Shown piece by piece: positions 1,596 to 37,010 of a stretch of DNA of 37,010 nucleotides; within the stretch, counting starts at the first letter, position 1; every line of letters starts with the position of its first letter. This DNA is from a virus (Duplodnaviria > Heunggongvirae > Uroviricota > Caudoviricetes): the IMG/VR virus record IMGVR_UViG_2778261177_000006; one strand, written 5' to 3'. The translations under genes were made by a program, and so were the position numbers. The notes under the pieces are model-generated. The model was not told the DNA's origin and searched no databases. It saw nothing but the letters and a program-made list of their open reading frames with translations.

Positions 1596-1736
1596 TTACT
1601 GCTTACACTGTAAGAACGCCGCAAACTCCGCTCCCCAGAAGCTCATCCGTATTTCACACAGCGAACCGTGCAGCATCCAGATGATGAGGATTACCGTCAC
1701 GCAGAACGTGATGGCCATAAGCGATTTTTGCGACAT
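1596..1736 (-). CDS. Hok/Gef-family type I toxin, 46 aa (MSQKSLMAITFCVTVILIIWMLHGSLCEIRMSFWGAEFAAFLQCKQ)
   Basis: Hand-translated minus-strand ORF (below the ORF-track length cutoff): ATG preceded by AAGGAG at 8 nt; hydrophobic N-terminal helix followed by the SLCEIR motif and an AAFLxCK tail, as in Hok/HokA-type toxins. Confidence 0.6.
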   Translation of the reverse strand: MSQKSLMAITFCVTVILIIWMLHGSLCEIRMSFWGAEFAAFLQCKQ

Positions 1737-1866
1737 AGCGCTTGCTCCTTTGTTGGAGAGGCGCTAACCTACGACTTGCGAAGGTTGTATGGTCAGGGCC
1801 TCGGTTAAACAAAAATGTTTTCCGGGGCCTTTCCACATCCGGCCTTCGGGTATTCCCTCCGACCAT
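1654..1866 (-). CDS. mok-like overlapping reading frame (70 aa) coupling translation to the hok-like toxin
   Basis: ORF-track 70-aa ORF starts upstream of the hok-like ORF, overlaps it in another frame and ends inside it, which is the mok/hok arrangement; no independent sequence signature. Confidence 0.35.
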   Translation of the reverse strand: MVGGNTRRPDVERPRKTFLFNRGPDHTTFASRRLAPLQQRSKRYVAKIAYGHHVLRDGNPHHLDAARFAV

Positions 1867-1926
1867 CAGCCGAAAGGCACCCGCGCGTAATCTATCGCTT
1901 TTTTGTTACTCCGGCAATTCTGCCTG

Positions 1927-23807: not shown

Positions 23808-23828
23808 TGGGGCTGTCCTTTTTACCAG
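23796..23828. terminator. Bidirectional terminator between convergent portal gene and orphan gene
   Basis: Stem cagcccc/ggggctg with an A run on one side and a T run on the other; contains the portal stop codon. Confidence 0.6.
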
Positions 23829-24346
23829 AGTTGAACCATTTTCTGGGTGCCGTCAGGCTTGAGATTATCAATTTCAGAGAGAACGTAATATTGAATGGCT
23901 TCACAAACGGTGGTGTATGGTGAATTACCTTCTTTAAGTGGCACGATATTATTATTAACGCGAACCTGTATTTCATCGTTATACATTGCGATCGAAAGAG
24001 GAGTATGCACGAAGGCGACTTCGCCAGGTGTGTCGTCAACCACTGTCTCAATGCTGAAAATCAGTTTTCGCTCATCATTGCCGCCCCTTGCTTTGGGGGT
24101 AGCGGCAGGAATCTGAGATAAAGGCATTCTGCGAAACCCTTCAGCCGTTTCCAGTCCGCATGAAACGTAATGCTGGCGATTACCGTCGCTATCCGTCCAT
24201 GTCTGTGATGGCAGCTCCAGAGAGATTTCATAAGCATCAACAATTCCCTGGGCAATGCGTACAAGCGGGGTCAGGTCTTCATTGCGGCGAAAACTCTCCT
24301 TTACCTGATCTCGTTTTTCTCGTAACTGCTTGTAATTAATGACCAT
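23822..24346 (-). CDS. Hypothetical protein, about 174 aa (start at MVINYKQL with GGAGG RBS); function unknown
   Basis: Clean ORF with strong RBS, own terminator, convergent with portal; no family recognised; GC visibly lower than the structural genes. Confidence 0.55.
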   Translation of the reverse strand: MVINYKQLREKRDQVKESFRRNEDLTPLVRIAQGIVDAYEISLELPSQTWTDSDGNRQHYVSCGLETAEGFRRMPLSQIPAATPKARGGNDERKLIFSIETVVDDTPGEVAFVHTPLSIAMYNDEIQVRVNNNIVPLKEGNSPYTTVCEAIQYYVLSEIDNLKPDGTQKMVQLW

Positions 24347-24448
24347 AGAACAGCCTCCATTGATTTCTTTGCTCGTATTTTGCACTTATGAAGTGTGGTC
24401 GGCAAGGTGCCGCATCACTGACGCGCTTCGCTTGTCTGCTGCTTCGCC

Positions 24449-24471
24449 GGGGCATAAAAAATTTATGCCCC
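24449..24471. promoter_or_regulatory. Perfect palindrome ggggcataaa-aaa-tttatgcccc upstream of the orphan gene
   Basis: 10-bp inverted repeat with 3-nt spacer read directly from the sequence, in the promoter-proximal region of the 23822-24346 gene. Confidence 0.4.
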
Positions 24472-24844
24472 GACTCTCCAGCTCCTGTATCAATCAGATA
24501 ATTTCGCGACGTCTTCCGACTTATCGCTATCATCGACGGCCAGACTCTTACACAATCCCGCCGCGCTGACTGCATGTTCTCGCCGCCTCAGTGCGATTTT
24601 GACGGCCTTACCTTTCATCCCATCAAATCAGAACACCTTACGTCTTTTTCACGCTCAGCGTGAGCGATACAGCCATTTTGTTGTGTCGCTGCGACATCGT
24701 TCAGGGAATGCTATTTACCCCCTGAAACGCGGGCTGTTCCCCCGTCACCTGCGCGCAGAAAAAGCGCGTTTTTTTGTGCACGCACGGATCCTTGACGGAT
24801 CCAGCCGCCATGCGGGCCGGAAGGGTAAAAAGTCGTTCAAAAAA

Positions 24845-24871
24845 ATTGTGCAAATTTGTGCACTTTTGTGC
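24845..24871. repeat. Three direct TTGTGCA repeats phased at 10 bp
   Basis: ttgtgcaaat / ttgtgcactt / ttgtgcaaac in tandem, one helical turn apart, next to the terminator hairpin. Confidence 0.6.
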
Positions 24872-24877
24872 AAACAA

Positions 24878-24900
24878 AAAGCGCCCCTGAGGCGCTTTAG
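24878..24900 (-). terminator. Rho-independent terminator of the parMR-containing operon (agcgcc-cctg-aggcgct)
   Basis: GC stem directly after the last minus-strand gene, followed on the minus strand by a T run. Confidence 0.6.
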
Positions 24901-24932
24901 TGTTTTATAGGTTGTGTATATTGGCTGGGTCC

Positions 24933-25196
24933 TTATCCTGCTGTGCTTTCAACTGATGAGGGGAACAAAATCTTTTCATCAAACCCTGCATTCATATCAT
25001 GGACAGCAACACACCAATCCATTGACGAACGATTATCAAGAGCCTCCATGATTTCATCCATGCGGCGTAGGTCATACAGGTAAATGCTTTTATCGCCAAT
25101 GGTGTAAAAACCAATTTTTTTCGGTGATGGACAGCGATCAAGAACGTCCTGTAATTCGCTCAACCATGCTTGTTCTTTTTTTGTCAAAGTTGCCAT
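24933..25196 (-). CDS. Hypothetical protein, about 87 aa (start at MATLTKKEQ)
   Basis: Last gene of the parM-parR operon; tightly packed with the upstream ORF; no family recognised. Confidence 0.45.
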   Translation of the reverse strand: MATLTKKEQAWLSELQDVLDRCPSPKKIGFYTIGDKSIYLYDLRRMDEIMEALDNRSSMDWCVAVHDMNAGFDEKILFPSSVESTAG

Positions 25197-25197
25197 A

Positions 25198-25629
25198 TCA
25201 CTCTCCTTTGATGCCAATGTCTACAGCTTGGCAAGCCTCTTTGGTCACCCAGTCAATAGCGTCTTTCCATACTCCAGTTTCGACTGGCGGATTCTCACGC
25301 TTTACCTGTTCATAGAAACGCACCGCTCTAACCAGTCCATCTGGTACTGCTGGCGCTGGCGGCTCTCGATACATAGGGATAACACGTCGCGGGTCCGCGT
25401 ATTTATCTGGCGGACACTGAAATATCTCACCGAAACCATACTGCTTGACATCACGCAGTTCCTCATCATCAGTCCATGCAACAGGTTTCGCTTCCAGCGA
25501 TGTGAGTGCGATTTTCAGTGCGATTAACATATTGTGATCGTTTTCATCAAGGCCAAACGGGATGTCTTCACGACACGATTCAAGGTCTGCAATTTTGCGT
25601 TGTAACCATTTTTTGGGGATAGTTGCCAT
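25198..25629 (-). CDS. Hypothetical protein, 143 aa
   Basis: Co-directional and closely spaced after the parR-like gene; no family recognised. Confidence 0.5.
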   Translation of the reverse strand: MATIPKKWLQRKIADLESCREDIPFGLDENDHNMLIALKIALTSLEAKPVAWTDDEELRDVKQYGFGEIFQCPPDKYADPRRVIPMYREPPAPAVPDGLVRAVRFYEQVKRENPPVETGVWKDAIDWVTKEACQAVDIGIKGE

Positions 25630-25648
25630 AGATGCTCCTCTCCTGTTT

Positions 25649-25963
25649 TCACTCTGGGAAAAATGACTGAATGTTCTTTCTTATCTCGCTAGTGCTGTGA
25701 TTGCTTCCGGTGGCAGGTGCGCTGGCATATTTACTCTGAATATTATTCTTGGCTGGCGCAGCTCCTTCTTCCGGCCATTCGGCCAACCAATAGGCAAATG
25801 CAGGATCGCGTTTTATGAGTGCCAGCCCGGCCAGAAAGGCCGCGCGTTGCGCGCGGCTGCGTTCAGAGGCTGGCAGGCTGTCGAGGTAATTACACGCCTC
25901 CCGTTCACTATTGACGGCGACTGGCTTCAGATAGAAACTTATCCGTCTGGTTGGTGTCGTCAT
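25649..25963 (-). CDS. parR: ParR-like ribbon-helix-helix centromere-binding protein (about 104 aa, start at MTTPTRRISF)
   Basis: RISFYLKPVAVNSEREACNYLDSLPASERSRAQRAAFLAGLAL closely parallels plasmid R1 ParR (RTIAFKLNPDVNQTDKIVCDTLDSIPQGERSRLNRAALTAGLAL); AAGGAG RBS; immediately downstream of parM. Confidence 0.75.
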   Translation of the reverse strand: MTTPTRRISFYLKPVAVNSEREACNYLDSLPASERSRAQRAAFLAGLALIKRDPAFAYWLAEWPEEGAAPAKNNIQSKYASAPATGSNHSTSEIRKNIQSFFPE

Positions 25964-25967
25964 TGGT

Positions 25968-26927
25968 TTACTCCTTGTCCATTGCGTACAAACCATTGAC
26001 CAGAGCAAACTGTGGCACCCCGTCCGCGATGAAAGTCGCATTAACTCCGCAGGCTTCGCGGATAGCGGGTGCCACAATCTCCGCCCCGCCACCGACAACC
26101 ATCACCCGCCCGTAACCCGAAAAACCCGCCAGCGCGCGGATCACTCGTTGTTTCAGCGTTTCTTCCTTTTCACGAATAACCGCCATCAGGCTGTCGTAAT
26201 GCGCGTCATTGTGGATGTGCTGGCGCAGCCAGGCTTCATCGTGGCGATGTTCGATAATGGTATTGGCGATATGGTGACTGGTACGCATACCGTTAGTGGC
26301 CATCACCGACAGTACGGCATCGGCCATCAGGGAAACGCCTACGTGTGGATCGCAAAACACCTGGCTGATACCTGCCAGTTGTCCCTGGACCTTTGCCACA
26401 TCCAGCGTGGTTCCGCCTAAATCCACAATCAGCAGGGATTCAAACGGACTCATGTCAGCCAGTGCTTTAAAACCAGCCGGAATGGATTCAGGCATAACCC
26501 GTACGTTACGGATAGTGAATGCTTTTCCGTTCTGGTACGCCACCGGGCGCATGACGTTTGCTTTTTTGCGGTTGATGTTGGCCATGTCCGGCTGTGCGTT
26601 TGTGTCGAAATATTCGCTCAGTGGCAGGGTGACAACCACATCCACTTCCTGTGGTGTGATGCCTGATTTGACCAGCGCGTGATGAATGGCAATGACATTC
26701 ACATCGCTGTACTGGTATTGCGTGTCGGTCGTCTGGACAAAGCGATCGCTGACCGGATCAAAACCATAGCGCACGCCATCAAGCATGTAGTTTGCGGGCT
26801 GCGTGCCACCGAACGGCGCAGACCATTCCGACTTGAAGCTGTTCGGGCTGATGGCGTTGCGGCGTTCGCCGTTCTCAGTCCATGCCAGCTTGATGTTGGT
26901 GGAGCCGTCGTCGATACAAATTTTCAT
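25968..26927 (-). CDS. parM: ParM/StbA-family actin-like segregation ATPase (319 aa)
   Basis: Near-complete colinearity with R1 ParM landmarks: IDDGSTNIKL, SPNSFK, YSDVNV-A-HHAL, KKAN, VMPESIPAG, DLGGTTLD, GVSL, VMV-GGGAE, LVNGLY. Confidence 0.85.
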   Translation of the reverse strand: MKICIDDGSTNIKLAWTENGERRNAISPNSFKSEWSAPFGGTQPANYMLDGVRYGFDPVSDRFVQTTDTQYQYSDVNVIAIHHALVKSGITPQEVDVVVTLPLSEYFDTNAQPDMANINRKKANVMRPVAYQNGKAFTIRNVRVMPESIPAGFKALADMSPFESLLIVDLGGTTLDVAKVQGQLAGISQVFCDPHVGVSLMADAVLSVMATNGMRTSHHIANTIIEHRHDEAWLRQHIHNDAHYDSLMAVIREKEETLKQRVIRALAGFSGYGRVMVVGGGAEIVAPAIREACGVNATFIADGVPQFALVNGLYAMDKE

Positions 26928-26958
26928 GTCGCTTTTCCTTATGTTGATTAATTAATCG

Positions 26959-26997
26959 TTTACGGGATTCTGAAATCCCGTTTTTGCCTGTTTTGTG
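26959..26997. repeat. 38-bp repeat unit 1 (tttacgggattctgaaatcccgtttttgcctgttttgtg) with internal palindrome, upstream of parM
   Basis: Contains inverted repeat acgggatt-N-aatcccgt followed by a T-rich tail; near-identical copy 73 bp away. Confidence 0.6.
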
Positions 26998-27003
26998 TGC
27001 GCT

Positions 27004-29826
27004 TCATATATCGCGGCGCGTTTTTTGCTCATTTACGGGATTTGTGAATCCCGTTTCTGTCTGTTTTTTGTTTCCACTGGTCAGGCCACCCCGCAGCAGG
27101 TCTGCTTTGCGGCGGGCACGTTCAGTGGTTTCACTGATTCTCTGTGCGTGCTCTGCGTCGCGGATGGCGCGCAGCATGTCAGAAAGCACGGTAACGGGTG
27201 TTTTCATGGTGTTCTGGTCCTGCTGAAGTGTGGATGCCAGGCGTGTGGCGGCTTCAGGGTCTGATGCCCCCAGCTGTGCCAGATAGCTGGCGACCGGGTT
27301 ATGGCGGATCTCCGTGCTGCTTACACCGTGATTACGGCTCAGGCGCTGCCAGAGCTGCGTGATTCGGCTGTCCGGGCGGGTATCCGGTTTGCGTACAATT
27401 TCAAATCCCTGCGGTGCAATGATGCTGCCGTCAACGTACAGACTGCCGCCCCGTAACAGGTGCTGCATTTGTTGTTCACCGATATGCAGGCCGAGAGATT
27501 CAGCAGACTCCCGCCATTCTCTAGCGAGTAATTCGTGGTTATCAGGCAAAGGCCGCTGCTGTTTGCGGCTCTGTGTCCAGCTCTGCATTTCATCACTGCT
27601 GTTTTTTGCCTGTTTGTCACGAAGCGAACGCATCAGCGCCCGGCGTTCGTGCCGTTTCAGTGAGCGCATCCATTCGTTCACTTCAACGCCGTCAGGGAGC
27701 TGCGGCCACGGTGCTGGCCGTTCTTCCGGCTGTTCTGTCCCGTTGTTGTCCGTTTCCTGTACACGGGGACAGTTATTGCCACGAGTCCAAGGGGCGGCAG
27801 GGCCGCCCTGAAGGTCAAAACCATTTTCGCGGGCGCTGTCTTCCGCTTCCGGTTTGCGTCTTACCAGCTTCCAGTTATCCGGATGCGTGCACACACGGGA
27901 GGATTCCCCGATGAGTGGTGACCAGATCCCGTAAATCTGTACGCCCTGCTCGCCGTAATCGTTCAGCTCATCTGCGAGGTCGTAGGCGGTGCGAATCAGG
28001 TAGTCCTTGCGTGGAACAAGTACGCCACCCTGTTTTTCAATGTAGGAGGCAAAACACCCGGCATCAGCGGCAGCAAGAACCGCATCCATTGCGTCATCCT
28101 TCAGCCGTTGCGGGCCTTCCGGGTTGCGTGCCATCTGGCTGGCAAGGCGGCGGAGTTCACGCCACACCTGACGGGAGGGGATGCCAAAGAACTGGAACTG
28201 GCGGACCCGGTGAAGGCGCGCCCAGCCGATGGCGCGCTCCACGCTCTCGGCCATTGATTTACCTGTTTCGTGGTCAACGCGTGGCTTGCCCGTTTTCGGG
28301 TCGATGCCATCCACGGCGCGGCTGTCCAGGTTCTTTCCGATGTAGGTCGCGATATAGCTGGTTGGTGTGCCTTTTGAGCCGTCGACATACTCCACCTTAA
28401 AGCGCGGAGTAATATCATTGCCGAGCTCGTGGCGGTCTTCCTGAATGGCAATATCGCGGGTGATGGCCACGATGCTGTCGATTTCTTCCGGATGTGCAAA
28501 GACCATCATATGCCAGTGCACTGTGCCGTCATGGTGAGGCTCCACCGTGCGGATGCCATACCAGCGAAGACCGTCGCGGTTCAGTTTTTTGCGGACCGCT
28601 GCAAAAAACGTGTTAACCAGGTAATCGCTGGAGTCGCGCATGGTGGCCCCGTTCCATCTGGGATTCGGATGACCGTTCTCTGTTGTGGCGTGGTACTTCG
28701 AAGGGGTGGTGACAGTCAGAAACACCGCTCTGTCGCCACGGGCTTCGGCCAGAAGTTCCAGCCCCTTCATGGTGGCCATCATTTCTGCCTTACGGTGAAC
28801 CGGGTTACTTACTCCCGCGTAATACACTGTCTCGAGATCAATCGTGAACCCGTCTTCGTTTTCCAGCATGAAACTTTTCAGGAAGTCGCGTGTTTTCTCG
28901 CGCTGTGCGCGAAACTCGCTTAACGCGTCCTGGCTCAGATAGGGCGATGTTTTTCTGGAAACCAGACAGGCGGCACGGAGTTGTTCTTCCCGCCACTCGC
29001 AACGTAACAGCCACAGTTTGCGTTTCCACCATTCCGCACAGGTCAGACGAAGGATTGCGCCCGGCAGCAGCTCCGTGTCCGGTTCGTTCCTCCGGTCTTT
29101 GTCTGTTGTCAGTGCTTCGTAATGCGGCGGCACGGTGTGCAGGTGTAACGCCATGCGGGCCAGCATCTGATACGCCTTCAGTGCCACCTCCATGGTCAGC
29201 TCACCATCAGTCGCGCCAAAGCCATCGCAGAGTTTTTCGAAGGTGCTGCTGAACATCGCCGCCGTCATGGTGGCCAGCGTCTGTATCTGGTGTTTGTTGA
29301 GCTGCGGCAGGTAAAGCAAATCATCCAGGCGTTCACGTCCGGCGAGGGAGCGATAACCCGGTGTCAGCCAGCGACTGTCGGCACGGTTAATGCGATCGAA
29401 TATCTTGCGCAGGGTTCCGCGTGCATAGCGTTCTGCCTGCCAGCTCTTTTTGCCTTTCCGGCGATCGGCTTCCTGTTTTTTGCGCAGGAAGGAGAGGTGG
29501 CGAATAAGCGGATCGCGCAGATAAGACGGCAGCAGGCGCAGCGAGGCCATGGCTTCATCCACCGCGCCGCGTGCCTGTTTTCTGGCGTCTCCTGCCAGTG
29601 TGATGGTTTTGTCCTGTTTTTCCTGTGCGTCCAGGCTTTTATTAATCAGGTTGCCCAGCGGCGTGGCGGAGAACGCCGCATCAGCCATTTCCTGGCGGCG
29701 CTCGTTCTCTGCCCGGTAGGCATCCAGCCAGGAGGAAAGCGCGGATTCAGGAGCGGGGATCCCCGTTCCTTCACGCCCCACTGCGTGGCGCGGTTGTTGC
29801 CAGTCCCTGATGTACTCTGCCGTCAT
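27004..29826 (-). CDS. A: Replication initiation endonuclease A (rolling-circle initiator, P2 gpA family), 940 aa
   Basis: HUH-type motif (HWHMMVFAH) and tandem active-site tyrosine motif (YIATYIGKN) in the translation; largest early-region ORF. Confidence 0.9.
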   Translation of the reverse strand: MTAEYIRDWQQPRHAVGREGTGIPAPESALSSWLDAYRAENERRQEMADAAFSATPLGNLINKSLDAQEKQDKTITLAGDARKQARGAVDEAMASLRLLPSYLRDPLIRHLSFLRKKQEADRRKGKKSWQAERYARGTLRKIFDRINRADSRWLTPGYRSLAGRERLDDLLYLPQLNKHQIQTLATMTAAMFSSTFEKLCDGFGATDGELTMEVALKAYQMLARMALHLHTVPPHYEALTTDKDRRNEPDTELLPGAILRLTCAEWWKRKLWLLRCEWREEQLRAACLVSRKTSPYLSQDALSEFRAQREKTRDFLKSFMLENEDGFTIDLETVYYAGVSNPVHRKAEMMATMKGLELLAEARGDRAVFLTVTTPSKYHATTENGHPNPRWNGATMRDSSDYLVNTFFAAVRKKLNRDGLRWYGIRTVEPHHDGTVHWHMMVFAHPEEIDSIVAITRDIAIQEDRHELGNDITPRFKVEYVDGSKGTPTSYIATYIGKNLDSRAVDGIDPKTGKPRVDHETGKSMAESVERAIGWARLHRVRQFQFFGIPSRQVWRELRRLASQMARNPEGPQRLKDDAMDAVLAAADAGCFASYIEKQGGVLVPRKDYLIRTAYDLADELNDYGEQGVQIYGIWSPLIGESSRVCTHPDNWKLVRRKPEAEDSARENGFDLQGGPAAPWTRGNNCPRVQETDNNGTEQPEERPAPWPQLPDGVEVNEWMRSLKRHERRALMRSLRDKQAKNSSDEMQSWTQSRKQQRPLPDNHELLAREWRESAESLGLHIGEQQMQHLLRGGSLYVDGSIIAPQGFEIVRKPDTRPDSRITQLWQRLSRNHGVSSTEIRHNPVASYLAQLGASDPEAATRLASTLQQDQNTMKTPVTVLSDMLRAIRDAEHAQRISETTERARRKADLLRGGLTSGNKKQTETGFTNPVNEQKTRRDI
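27032..27070. repeat. 38-bp repeat unit 2 (tttacgggatttgtgaatcccgtttctgtctgttttttg) inside the 3' end of gene A
   Basis: Same architecture as unit 1; lies within the last ~20 codons of the A ORF. Confidence 0.6.
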
Positions 29827-29832
29827 AGTGAT

Positions 29833-30198
29833 TTACTTCGTCATGCCATTCAGGGTGTCGCGGCAGACTGTAGCCAGCCGCTGAATTTCCAGCACGGTGT
29901 CTTCTGTGTCGGCATGGCGATGTGTGATGCGGATGCTGTCGGCAATCACATCGACGATTGCAGAGGATGGGCGCTGGTAAATGCCAATAACGGACGGGGT
30001 GCCACCTTCAATGCGGTAAAGCCTGTAATTTCCCTCGTGGCTGTCAATCATGTAGCGACCATCAATAACAATCTTTCCGTCAGCGAGCTGCGGTACAGGC
30101 AGGGATTTCAGGTACATGTCATAACGATCACGCACGCGAGCGGCAAGATCACGTTCTGTGTTGAGCAGGTATTCAAGAAAGTCGTTGGCGAGAATCAT
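29833..30198 (-). CDS. Hypothetical early protein, 121 aa
   Basis: Immediately upstream of A and co-directional; no family recognised. Confidence 0.5.
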   Translation of the reverse strand: MILANDFLEYLLNTERDLAARVRDRYDMYLKSLPVPQLADGKIVIDGRYMIDSHEGNYRLYRIEGGTPSVIGIYQRPSSAIVDVIADSIRITHRHADTEDTVLEIQRLATVCRDTLNGMTK

Positions 30199-30270
30199 TG
30201 CGGCAATCCTCTTGTTACAGATGTGCGAAGGCCTCCCGCCGCAAGGTGCAGGAAAGGCCCGGAACAGGAA

Positions 30271-30501
30271 TTAATGGAGTTTGTTTTGCTGCTGGATGAG
30301 CTGTTGAAGCTCGTGCAGATCATCCGCCAGATAGCTGAAAACAGCGGCGGAATAGATGTTTGATAGTGCGTGGCTGCGCTCATGCAGCATATTGATGTGC
30401 ATGATTTGCGCGACGCGTGATGCGCGGAAAAGTCTGCGGTTGATTTCAGTCTGGATGTGACGACGCTCCGCGATAGCGCGGTGCTGTTTGCGGTTTGCCA
30501 T
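30271..30501 (-). CDS. Hypothetical early protein, 76 aa
   Basis: Small basic protein upstream of the replication genes; no family recognised. Confidence 0.4.
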   Translation of the reverse strand: MANRKQHRAIAERRHIQTEINRRLFRASRVAQIMHINMLHERSHALSNIYSAAVFSYLADDLHELQQLIQQQNKLH

Positions 30502-30680
30502 GGTGTGGCCTCGTACGTAGTAAGTTTTAAAAACTCACCATCCAGAGGTGGAAAACTCGGGGTGGTGAGACGTACAGGGTTTCCACAACCGGCTACGCAC
30601 GAATCCGGCCCGACCGAAGTCGGCCCTGTACGCCCCACCATAATTCTGACGCGAAAAAGACGTGGCGATACGGTACGCAC

Positions 30681-30701
30681 AAAAAAACCGCTGGCGCGGT
30701 T
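30681..30701 (-). terminator. Minus-strand rho-independent terminator (aaccgc-tggc-gcggtt plus T7 on minus strand)
   Basis: 6-bp stem preceded on the plus strand by an A7 run, i.e. hairpin plus U tract when read on the minus strand. Confidence 0.55.
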
Positions 30702-30837
30702 GTGCGCGTGCATAGTCAGCGGGGTGGAAATCCCGGCACCCGTTTTATGAGGTGCAGCGGAAATGTAACCTGACTGATTGCGGCATGGCAAGCGGTTTTT
30801 TTGTGAGAACGGCATACTAAAAAATCCTGATACTGCT

Positions 30838-30868: not shown

Positions 30869-31699
30869 TTACTTCACCGGAACAAACGGAACAGCGGTAT
30901 TGCTGGTCATATATTGCGGCAGCGTGCCGTTCCATTTGTTGATTGCTTCCAGCTCCATAACGCCGGGATTCTGACGCAGAGCTTCACCGCGTAAACGAAT
31001 GGCGTCAGCTTCAGCCTGGGCTTTTGTGCGAATGGCATCAGCCTGTCCGGCAGCTTCTGCGCGCAACATGTTGGCTTCAGCTTCGCGTTGCTTGACTTCC
31101 TGTTCGCGTTGCAGGGTTTTCTGGTTTGCCGTGACTTTGGCGTTAATGCTGTCGATAACGGTTGGCGGATATTCCGGTTTACCGACATAAGAGAGGCTCA
31201 TGACCTGAATGCCGATGGGGGTCATCTCTTCCTGAATATCTTTAAGTGCTGAATCCAGCAGTTCAGACTTACCACCGTCGATAAACTTATCGGTGGTCAT
31301 TTTGCTGGCCAGTCGGTTGAGTGCATCGGCGATCTTCTGGCGCAGGTCAGTGTCGGTAATGTCATCCACGCCTTTGCGGTAGGTTTGAAACACTGTGGTA
31401 ACTTTGGATGGATCAACCTTGTAGGCCACACCGATGTGATAGCCGATGGTTGTGCCGTCACTCATCTGAAAGCTGAACGGCTCATCGTAGGTCTTCATTT
31501 GTTTGAAGGTCGGGAAGATGTAAACCTCGGTATTCCAGCCAGTCCAGTAGCGGCCAACGCCAACCACTTCGCCAACGCCTTTGTCGTCGCCCAGCTTGTT
31601 GACTTTGATGCCCACATTACCTGGCTCAACGCGATCGCAGCCAACCAGCAGGATGGCGGCAAAAAGCGGGAGAATCTGAAAGAGTTTGAATTTCTTCAT
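30869..31699 (-). CDS. SPFH/band-7 (prohibitin/stomatin-like) domain lipoprotein, 276 aa
   Basis: N-terminal signal peptide with lipobox (LLVGC); SPFH core (GNVGIKV...) followed by an Ala/Glu-rich coiled coil (AEANMLRAEAAGQADAIRTKAQAEADAIRLRGEA). Confidence 0.8.
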   Translation of the reverse strand: MKKFKLFQILPLFAAILLVGCDRVEPGNVGIKVNKLGDDKGVGEVVGVGRYWTGWNTEVYIFPTFKQMKTYDEPFSFQMSDGTTIGYHIGVAYKVDPSKVTTVFQTYRKGVDDITDTDLRQKIADALNRLASKMTTDKFIDGGKSELLDSALKDIQEEMTPIGIQVMSLSYVGKPEYPPTVIDSINAKVTANQKTLQREQEVKQREAEANMLRAEAAGQADAIRTKAQAEADAIRLRGEALRQNPGVMELEAINKWNGTLPQYMTSNTAVPFVPVK

Positions 31700-35948: not shown

Positions 35949-36017
35949 CTTTACACATTGAGCGAATTACATATCGCAAGGAGTGTTTAGTTAATTTATC
36001 CGTTGGAGGGGCTAATC

Positions 36018-37010
36018 ATGTCGATTAAGCAACTCAAAGACGGACGTTATCAGGTCGATATCAGACCGCAGGGGGCGGAAGGAAAGCGGATTCGAAAAAT
36101 CTTTGCCCTGAAATCAAAGGCTCAGGAGTTTGAGAAGTATGTGTTACAGAACTTTCATGACAAGCCATGGCAGGCTAAGCCAGCTGATCAGCGGCGATTA
36201 TCAGAGCTGCTTGATGCGTGGTGGATGCTTGATGGGCGTAATCAGGCTTACGGGGATAGCTACAGGGTTAGGCTAGGGAAGGTTGTTCGTGAAATGGGAG
36301 ATCCTCGCGCCAGTCAGATGACGCGAAAATTTATGCTTGAATATCGGTCAGAGAAATTACAGGCCGGCTTAATGCCGTCCAGTATTAATCGTGACTTATG
36401 CGTACTGTCTACCATGTTCACGGTGCTGATTGAAGCTGAGGTCTTTCACAACGCGAACCCTGTACGCGGTATACGAAAACTGAAAGTTCAGAACACAGAG
36501 ATGGCCTTTCTTTCTGATGATGAGATTGAACGGCTTCTTGAGCGACTGGAGGGTGATGCGCGTCGTGTTGCCATTCTGTGTCTTTCTACTGGTGCCCGAT
36601 GGAGTGAAGCATCGGAACTACGTGGAGAGCATATCGTTGGCAACCGGGTGACGTTCTTTAACACCAAAAACGGAAAATCCCGTTCGGTTCCTGTGGCGGA
36701 TTCGGTCGTGCCTCTGATTAAAACCCGTCGAACGGGGTTATTGTATCAGGTTGATTATCTGAAGTTCCGGGAGATTCTTCAGGAGGTGAAACCGGATTTG
36801 CCGAAGGGGCAGGCTACGCATGTCATGCGTCATACATTTGCCACACACTTTATGATGAATGGCGGAAATATTGTTACGTTGCAACGAATCCTGGGGCACG
36901 CAACGATTCAGCAAACAATGACGTACGCTCATTTTTCGCCGGACTTCTTACAGGACGCGATCAACTTTAATCCGCTGGCTGAAAGTGTCCATAAACTGTC
37001 CATCGATTAG
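36018..37010 (+). CDS. int: Tyrosine integrase, P2 Int family (about 330 aa, start at MSIKQLKDGRY)
   Basis: N-terminal MSIKQLKDGRYQVDIRP as in P2 Int; C-terminal catalytic box HVMRHTFATHF...LGHATIQQTMTYAHF (His-x-x-Arg ... Tyr); GGAGGGG RBS; stop is the last codon of the window. Confidence 0.9.
   Translation: MSIKQLKDGRYQVDIRPQGAEGKRIRKIFALKSKAQEFEKYVLQNFHDKPWQAKPADQRRLSELLDAWWMLDGRNQAYGDSYRVRLGKVVREMGDPRASQMTRKFMLEYRSEKLQAGLMPSSINRDLCVLSTMFTVLIEAEVFHNANPVRGIRKLKVQNTEMAFLSDDEIERLLERLEGDARRVAILCLSTGARWSEASELRGEHIVGNRVTFFNTKNGKSRSVPVADSVVPLIKTRRTGLLYQVDYLKFREILQEVKPDLPKGQATHVMRHTFATHFMMNGGNIVTLQRILGHATIQQTMTYAHFSPDFLQDAINFNPLAESVHKLSID

Follow-up and report, generated by a model that had tools for sequence, protein, structure and literature searches.

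Results

The stretch of DNA analyzed here, referred to below as the window, is the 37,010-nt Caudoviricetes record IMGVR_UViG_2778261177_000006 of IMG/VR, and this report concerns a ParM/ParR-type partition module that it carries at positions 25649–26997. The window holds an integrated prophage, with serS (1–1293) at one end, an integrase gene (36003–37010) at the other, and P2-type structural genes between the two; along the window, serS is followed by gpD and by tail, head, and terminase genes. The module consists of two minus-strand genes: parM (25968–26927), encoding a 319-aa actin-fold ATPase, and parR (25649–25963), encoding a 104-aa predicted ribbon-helix-helix centromere-binding adaptor. 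Directly upstream on the same strand lies a homologue of gene A (27004–29826; 940 aa; Pfam Phage_GPA, 9.7e-129), whose product is of the rolling-circle replication endonuclease type. The layout is compact, with a 76-bp spacer between A and parM, 4 nt between the parM stop and the parR ATG, a parR ribosome-binding site (AAGGAG) within the 3′ end of parM, and no minus-strand terminator predicted between A and parM. The gene A product (gpA) is 30% identical to the 761-aa gpA of P2 over 747 aa and has a C-terminal extension of ~140 aa relative to it (27004–27420, minus strand). By inference only, from an alignment with the P2 nick-site region (…AAPRSPVNNC…), the replication origin would fall near position 27770, ~0.7 kb from the palindromes described below.

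ParM matches the Pfam StbA_N (6.9e-82) and ParM C-terminal domain (9.9e-69) profiles as well as the R1 ParM entry in the Protein Data Bank (1mwk; 2.3e-92), and is 47% identical to ParM of plasmid R1 over 318 aa in a pairwise alignment. Its nucleotide-binding motifs (DDGSTNIK, MPESIPAG, DLGGTTLD, and GGGAE) are the same or nearly the same as in R1, and the phosphate-1, phosphate-2, catalytic Glu, and adenosine motifs are all intact, as befits a type II system. The second feature of such systems, a small ribbon-helix-helix adaptor encoded immediately 3′ of parM, is provided by ParR, which matches Pfam Plasmid_stab_B (ParR/StbB; 3.8e-25) and the structure of ParR/StbB from plasmid pB171 (2jd3; 4.7e-3). 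The two proteins form a PHROG 691/PHROG 2515 pair, both labelled "partition protein."

Upstream of parM there are two 43-nt direct repeats, 81% identical and 73 bp apart, each of which holds a perfect 8 + 8 palindrome, ACGGGATT-N4-AATCCCGT. The distal repeat (27029–27071; palindrome ACGGGATT-TGTG-AATCCCGT at 27035–27054) lies within the 3′ end of gene A and overlaps its last ~20 codons, so that the end of the gpA extension is encoded by the palindrome itself, and the proximal repeat (26956–26998; palindrome ACGGGATT-CTGA-AATCCCGT at 26962–26981) lies in the A-parM spacer. At up to three mismatches, these two are the only occurrences of the palindrome in the window, against 0.12 expected by chance. 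A core of the form YGGG-N10-CCCR recurs in prophages from Escherichia, E. albertii, Salmonella, Plesiomonas, and Hafnia, with the distal copy at about −126 to −132 and the proximal copy at about −53 to −60 from the parM ATG, the two always being 72–73 bp apart. In Plesiomonas and Hafnia, the flanks have diverged but the GGG...CCC cores are still present, with their spacing and their distance from the parM ATG preserved, and the Plesiomonas palindromes have arms of just 4 bp (CGGG/CCCG) around a 10-nt spacer. A weak putative −10 element of parM (ATTAAT; 26956–26951, minus strand) is invariant in the upstream alignment of the window, Plesiomonas, and Hafnia, and a putative parM ribosome-binding site, AAGGAAAA, follows at 26940–26933 (minus strand). 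An initial annotation, made from the sequence alone, had described an R1-like ParM/ParR pair with conserved actin-fold nucleotide-binding residues, preceded by a repeat region at the place of parC, with the pair directly following gene A and the whole lying in a P2-like prophage integrated beside serS; profile searches, motif alignment, and the repeats bear out this description in each respect.

The module is shared with a whole group of phages. The 1.5-kb parMR segment is 94–98% identical to that of P88, Citrobacter phage phiSM, P884B11, and 520873, all in the genus Xuanwuvirus (Peduoviridae), and this identity, together with the gene order terminase, portal, cargo, parR, parM, A, places the prophage in the window in the same genus. 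Among 5426 complete E. coli genomes, 1304 (~24%) carry the module, at 1444 places of which 1442 are chromosomal and two are on plasmids. Integration sites vary (serS in the window, the pheA side or the yecA side elsewhere), with an integrase always present. When ParM was compared by tblastn with 50,697 phage records, only Xuanwuvirus (95–99%) and the phage-plasmid D6 (48%) were found. RefSeq labels the proteins "plasmid segregation protein ParM" and "plasmid partitioning/stability family protein," including in P88 (NC_026014). As a sequence feature, the module is therefore already known, annotated, and genus-defining for a common prophage family, and the initial impression that it is exceptional cargo has to be abandoned.

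We compared the window with nine related records (phages, prophages, or plasmids), 10 Xuanwuvirus loci in all. At the DNA level, identity is 92–100% from the 3′ end of gene A through both palindromes and parM to ~40 nt into parR, and ParM is 98–99% identical at the amino acid level, with the same position of the module in P88, phiSM, and the RefSeq E. coli prophages; relative to the P88-type module, the window differs in its parR allele, its downstream cargo, and its integration site. For parM, dN/dS is 0.03–0.07 against the window (dS ~0.1), with a median of 0.065 over all pairs. The gene is under strong purifying selection (dN/dS ~0.05), which rules out a pseudogene. Identity collapses inside parR, at ~25923 in comparison with P88 and at ~25803 in comparison with another allele type, which marks these positions as recombination breakpoints. 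Beside a nearly invariant parM, at least three ParR allele types are found, with a mutual amino acid identity of 50–68% (52% between the window and P88) and a dN/dS of 0.1–0.38 within one allele type. What the allele types share is an N-terminal β-strand segment, TRRISFYLKP, and a C-terminal NIxxxFPE in the last ~8 residues, with a hypervariable central linker saturated with changes. Six β-strand residues (R6, S9, F10, Y11, L12, and P14) are invariant even when Plesiomonas and Hafnia are included, and a C-terminal N-I/A-x-x-x-F-P motif is likewise kept, among ParRs that are otherwise 32–68% identical.

It follows that parM and parC are a fixed backbone and that a variable hotspot starts within or after parR. 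The module sits in the A-to-portal interval, which in P2 (A-to-cos) carries orf91, tin, and old. The proposal that it fills the slot of these accessory genes was right about the interval and wrong about the nature of the occupant: parM and parC are near-identical in 10 of 10 loci, where variability begins only inside parR, and a PADLOC defense-model scan returned no match for ParM or ParR. Likewise, comparison of the slot among related prophages, which had been suggested as a check, finds cargo that varies downstream and a parM/parC that is always there. The parR-to-portal gene set differs in each of the 10 loci, and this interval is a cargo hotspot. In the window it spans 23822–25629 (minus strand) with three open reading frames (ORFs), at 25198–25629, which begins 19 nt past the parR stop, at 24933–25217, and at 23822–24385, the last two separated by a 550-bp noncoding gap (24385–24933). 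No Pfam or PADLOC match was found for these ORFs, which belong to PHROGs 660, 1714, and 5091, none with a known function. In more distant relatives, the same interval holds HicAB in Serratia (locus L016, 9450–10084) and a KAP-family NTPase in Enterobacter (locus L017, 9411–10757).

A genome-contig scan with ParM yielded only three close loci (E. albertii, Salmonella, and "Vagococcus"), and wider relatives came from a protein collection. P2-like prophages in Plesiomonas, Hafnia, Serratia, and Enterobacter encode ParMs that are 63%, 62%, 58%, and 53% identical to that in the window, respectively, in the order gpA, zero to two extra genes, parM, parR, cargo, portal; the synteny gpA-parM-parR-cargo-portal is also seen in Escherichia, Citrobacter, Salmonella, and E. 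albertii. In a neighbor-joining (NJ) tree, the Xuanwuvirus, Hafnia, and Plesiomonas ParMs form one clade with a bootstrap of 100/100. The closest plasmid ParMs are at most 53% identical, which rules out recent capture from a plasmid. Full-length ParMs in the protein collection form clusters of 1308 and 4287 member sequences. Truncated ParM clusters (188–261 aa) with hundreds of members also occur, at least one of them on a 5-Mb contig. A parM-parR pair was also seen on a Dickeya chromosome (locus L018, 8001–9373), in a region resembling an integrative and conjugative element (ICE) with TraG/TraU and an integrase; its ParM is 49% identical and forms a lineage separate from the phage clade in the NJ tree. 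The contig NZ_JBQPOM010000071.1, assigned to "Vagococcus sp.," a Gram-positive genus, encodes a ParM that shares 97% identity with that of the E. coli prophages and is most likely enterobacterial contamination of the assembly.

At the opposite end of the prophage, between serS and an ogr-like gene (1927–2187), is a hok/sok-like type I toxin-antitoxin (1596–1882, minus strand). Its Hok ORF (1596–1736; 46 aa) matches Pfam HOK_GEF (3.1e-7; 30.3 bits against a cutoff of 22), and the Rfam sok family (RF01794) matches 1726–1882 with 41.4 bits (E 1e-7), under the gathering score of 59. A hok gene is present also in the circular phage record L003 (annotated Hok/Gef) and in phage 520873 (MokW-like). 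Plasmid R1 carries both kinds of stability locus, parMRC and hok/sok, and the combination of parMR and a hok/sok-like module in one prophage fits an element that guards against its own loss.

Elsewhere in the early region, two Rfam families match above their gathering scores, C4 antisense RNA (30558–30645, minus strand; 77.5 bits) and the Hfq-binding RNA isrK (30681–30755, minus strand; 62.2 bits), both inside or overlapping an Ash-family ORF (30195–30815). The early gene block also encodes an SPFH/Band 7 protein (30869–31699, minus strand; Pfam, 5.7e-31), which PHROG 200 labels "lipoprotein." The P2 cos sequence has no match in the window at up to three mismatches, and cos was therefore left unplaced.

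Discussion

The reading that we favor, with a probability only slightly better than even (about 55%), is that the parMR module is a functional type II (ParMRC) segregation cassette, long-standing and vertically inherited in the replication module of P88-like and related P2-like phages, and that it probably acts on an extrachromosomal circle. What the sequence itself shows in its favor is homology to ParM/ParR with intact motifs, purifying selection, and synteny and cis-sites that are conserved among relatives. Because the element is nearly always integrated together with an integrase, and because parMR comes directly after gene A in the early (replication) gene block with no terminator on the coding strand, the likely substrate is the extrachromosomal circle rather than the integrated prophage. 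Binding of ParR to its sites, filament-driven movement, and the stage of the life cycle at which these would operate are what we infer from this pattern and from the ParMRC model for R1, pB171, and pSK41, which Salje, Gayathri, and Löwe reportedly reviewed in 2010.

In such a mechanism, the ribbon-helix-helix N terminus of ParR would bind both palindromes through the YGGG-N10-CCCR core. Being 73 bp, or seven helical turns, apart, the palindromes would present the same face of the DNA while straddling the end of gene A and the parM promoter region, and ParR bound there may both build the centromere complex and repress its own operon. The conserved C-terminal tail of ParR would capture or cap the ends of ATP-ParM filaments, whose growth between two ParR/parC complexes would push sister phage DNAs apart. 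The substrate would be the circular phage genome while gpA replicates it, either between infection and integration or following excision, and ParMR might spread the rolling-circle products of gpA or deliver circles to both daughter cells. The benefit could be a higher yield of lysogens or of replicated and packaged genomes, perhaps because templates for replication or packaging are spaced and positioned.

Comparison with known systems highlights both similarities and differences. R1 ParMRC (the parA locus) has the same order of cis-site, parM, and parR, with its repeats around the operon promoter region. It is located on a plasmid, whereas the module in the window is on an integrating P2-like phage and its ParM belongs to a lineage distinct from plasmid ParMs. 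The other ParM-bearing phage in the collection, the P1-like phage-plasmid D6 with its StbA-type protein, is a plasmid prophage, for which partition must be obligatory, unlike the integrating P88-like phages. A tested precedent is AlpA/AlpC of the integrated prophage CGP3 in Corynebacterium glutamicum, likewise an actin-like ATPase with a DNA-binding adaptor, which acts on excised circular phage DNA early after induction (PMC4446434, PMC5539076). There, the adaptor binds repeats in the promoter region upstream of the operon, which is induced early, and the system ties the phage circles to actin-like filaments, efficient and full replication being dependent on it (PMC4446434). It differs from the module described here in that the sequences are very distant, the adaptor gene comes first, AlpC did not display ParM-type dynamic instability, and the role proposed for AlpAC is transport to the membrane for replication and not bipolar segregation (PMC4446434, PMC5539076). 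In SXT/R391 ICEs, SrpMRC is likewise a ParMRC-type system on a normally chromosomal element and stabilizes the excised, rolling-circle-replicating form of ICE R391, although this element is conjugative and not a phage and its protein is distant from R1 ParM (PMC4489591). Given these two experimental precedents, the premise of the initial annotation that such systems are not to be expected on integrating elements does not hold.

Several observations weigh against our reading. Only two candidate ParR sites are visible, 20-bp palindromes 73 bp apart of which one is inside the upstream gene, whereas R1 parC has ten direct iterons of 11 bp; a pair might not suffice for a ring-like, filament-capturing complex and could be an operator alone. 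The Serratia and Enterobacter relatives have no YGGG-N10-CCCR pair and instead carry a different large inverted repeat. When these two lineages are added to the NJ tree, the bootstrap for all P2-like phage ParMs is 40/100, so that a single ancient acquisition of the phage ParM is not established, plausible as it is. A consensus promoter scan of 25400–27400 gave nothing that reached threshold. ParM was not found by tblastn in P2, 186, or other sequenced P2-like phages among the 50,697 records, which argues that the module is dispensable for the basic P2 life cycle. Full-text literature searches turned up no functional study of the module, the phiSM paper only listing the gene, by annotation, as a "fitness" factor.

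Among the alternatives, the one that survives best, improbable as we consider it, is that these elements are facultative phage-plasmids, able to persist for many generations as low-copy plasmids (for example, when attB is missing or integration has failed), with gpA replicating the circle, ParMRC partitioning it, and hok/sok policing its loss. The presence of both R1-type stability loci and the identity of the one further ParM-bearing phage in the collection, the phage-plasmid D6, are in keeping with this, as is a circular "plasmid" record of 34,461 bp (NZ_CP148288.1) comprising an entire P88-like genome, integrase included. However, that record is the one phage-sized circle among 72,556 plasmid records and could be excised DNA from spontaneous induction, the two plasmid-borne places stand against 1442 chromosomal ones, and the integrase is never missing. 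Moreover, a P2-type lysogen keeps its early operon, of which gene A is part, repressed, which would leave a plasmid state without replication. Extrachromosomal maintenance in lysogens, which characterizes phage-plasmids, is not what the window displays, where the prophage sits between serS and its own integrase, and a regular plasmid lifestyle is not supported. Phage 520873 was considered as evidence for an episome and rejected, its record being a linear prophage excerpt with host flanks.

A slimmer chance attaches to a role in lysogenic conversion or competition, in which ParR/parC or ParM of the prophage would block incoming plasmids or related phages by incompatibility or exclusion, or would act in defense or anti-defense. 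The module does border the A-to-portal hotspot, which in relatives holds toxin-antitoxin genes and a KAP NTPase, and the sharply distinct parR alleles with breakpoints within the gene form a pattern that is frequent in conflict genes. However, what varies in ParR is not what would set its specificity: the conserved parts are the DNA-binding strand and the ParM-binding tail, which argues that specificity is not diversifying, and ParM and parC are near-invariant. In addition, PADLOC recognizes neither protein, and the distance to plasmid ParMs (at most 53% identity) makes cross-talk unlikely.

We are equally doubtful that the palindromes are something other than a centromere, either intrinsic terminators on the plus strand or an operator for ParR only, in which case ParM would do without a phage centromere of its own or the cassette would be a selfish passenger. 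Both palindrome hairpins precede T-runs on the plus strand and are called terminator-like by prediction, and the number of sites, just two, would suit an operator. Against a terminator, the nearest plus-strand gene ends at least 1.3 kb away, across the antisense parMR. Furthermore, the 4-bp arms in Plesiomonas form no stable hairpin, yet position and spacing are kept, which points to a protein-binding site and not to an RNA hairpin or terminator. The last alternative, a functionless and decaying relic of an old recombination between plasmid and phage, could appeal to the truncated ParM clusters but is effectively refuted by selection and conservation data, namely a parM dN/dS of ~0.05, intact motifs, full-length clusters with thousands of members, and synteny that is kept down to 53–63% ParM identity.

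Returning to the ParMRC cassette as a segregation system for phage circles, a more far-reaching version of it can be put forward tentatively, and we hold it to be less probable than its negation. In this version, a P2-like lineage equipped with an ancient phage-specific ParMRC, a minimal two-palindrome centromere, and hok/sok would segregate the circles of its rolling-circle-replicating genome and thereby pass through a stable carrier phase resembling that of a plasmid, either ahead of integration or once excised. If true, such a carrier phase would be a mechanism for lysogenization efficiency and prophage retention that is undescribed for P2-type phages.

As a sequence finding, the module is ordinary and already annotated, and it is its role in P2-like phages that is of moderate interest. 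Nevertheless, a chromosomal copy of an actin-type segregation machine is present in about 24% of complete E. coli genomes, O104:H4 outbreak strains among them. If this machine does segregate or position phage circles, it would offer a compact two-site centromere in which to study the minimum number of ParR sites, and the principle embodied by AlpAC of CGP3 and SrpMRC of SXT, that integrating elements protect a transient extrachromosomal stage with the tools of plasmids, would extend to a major family of enterobacterial phages.

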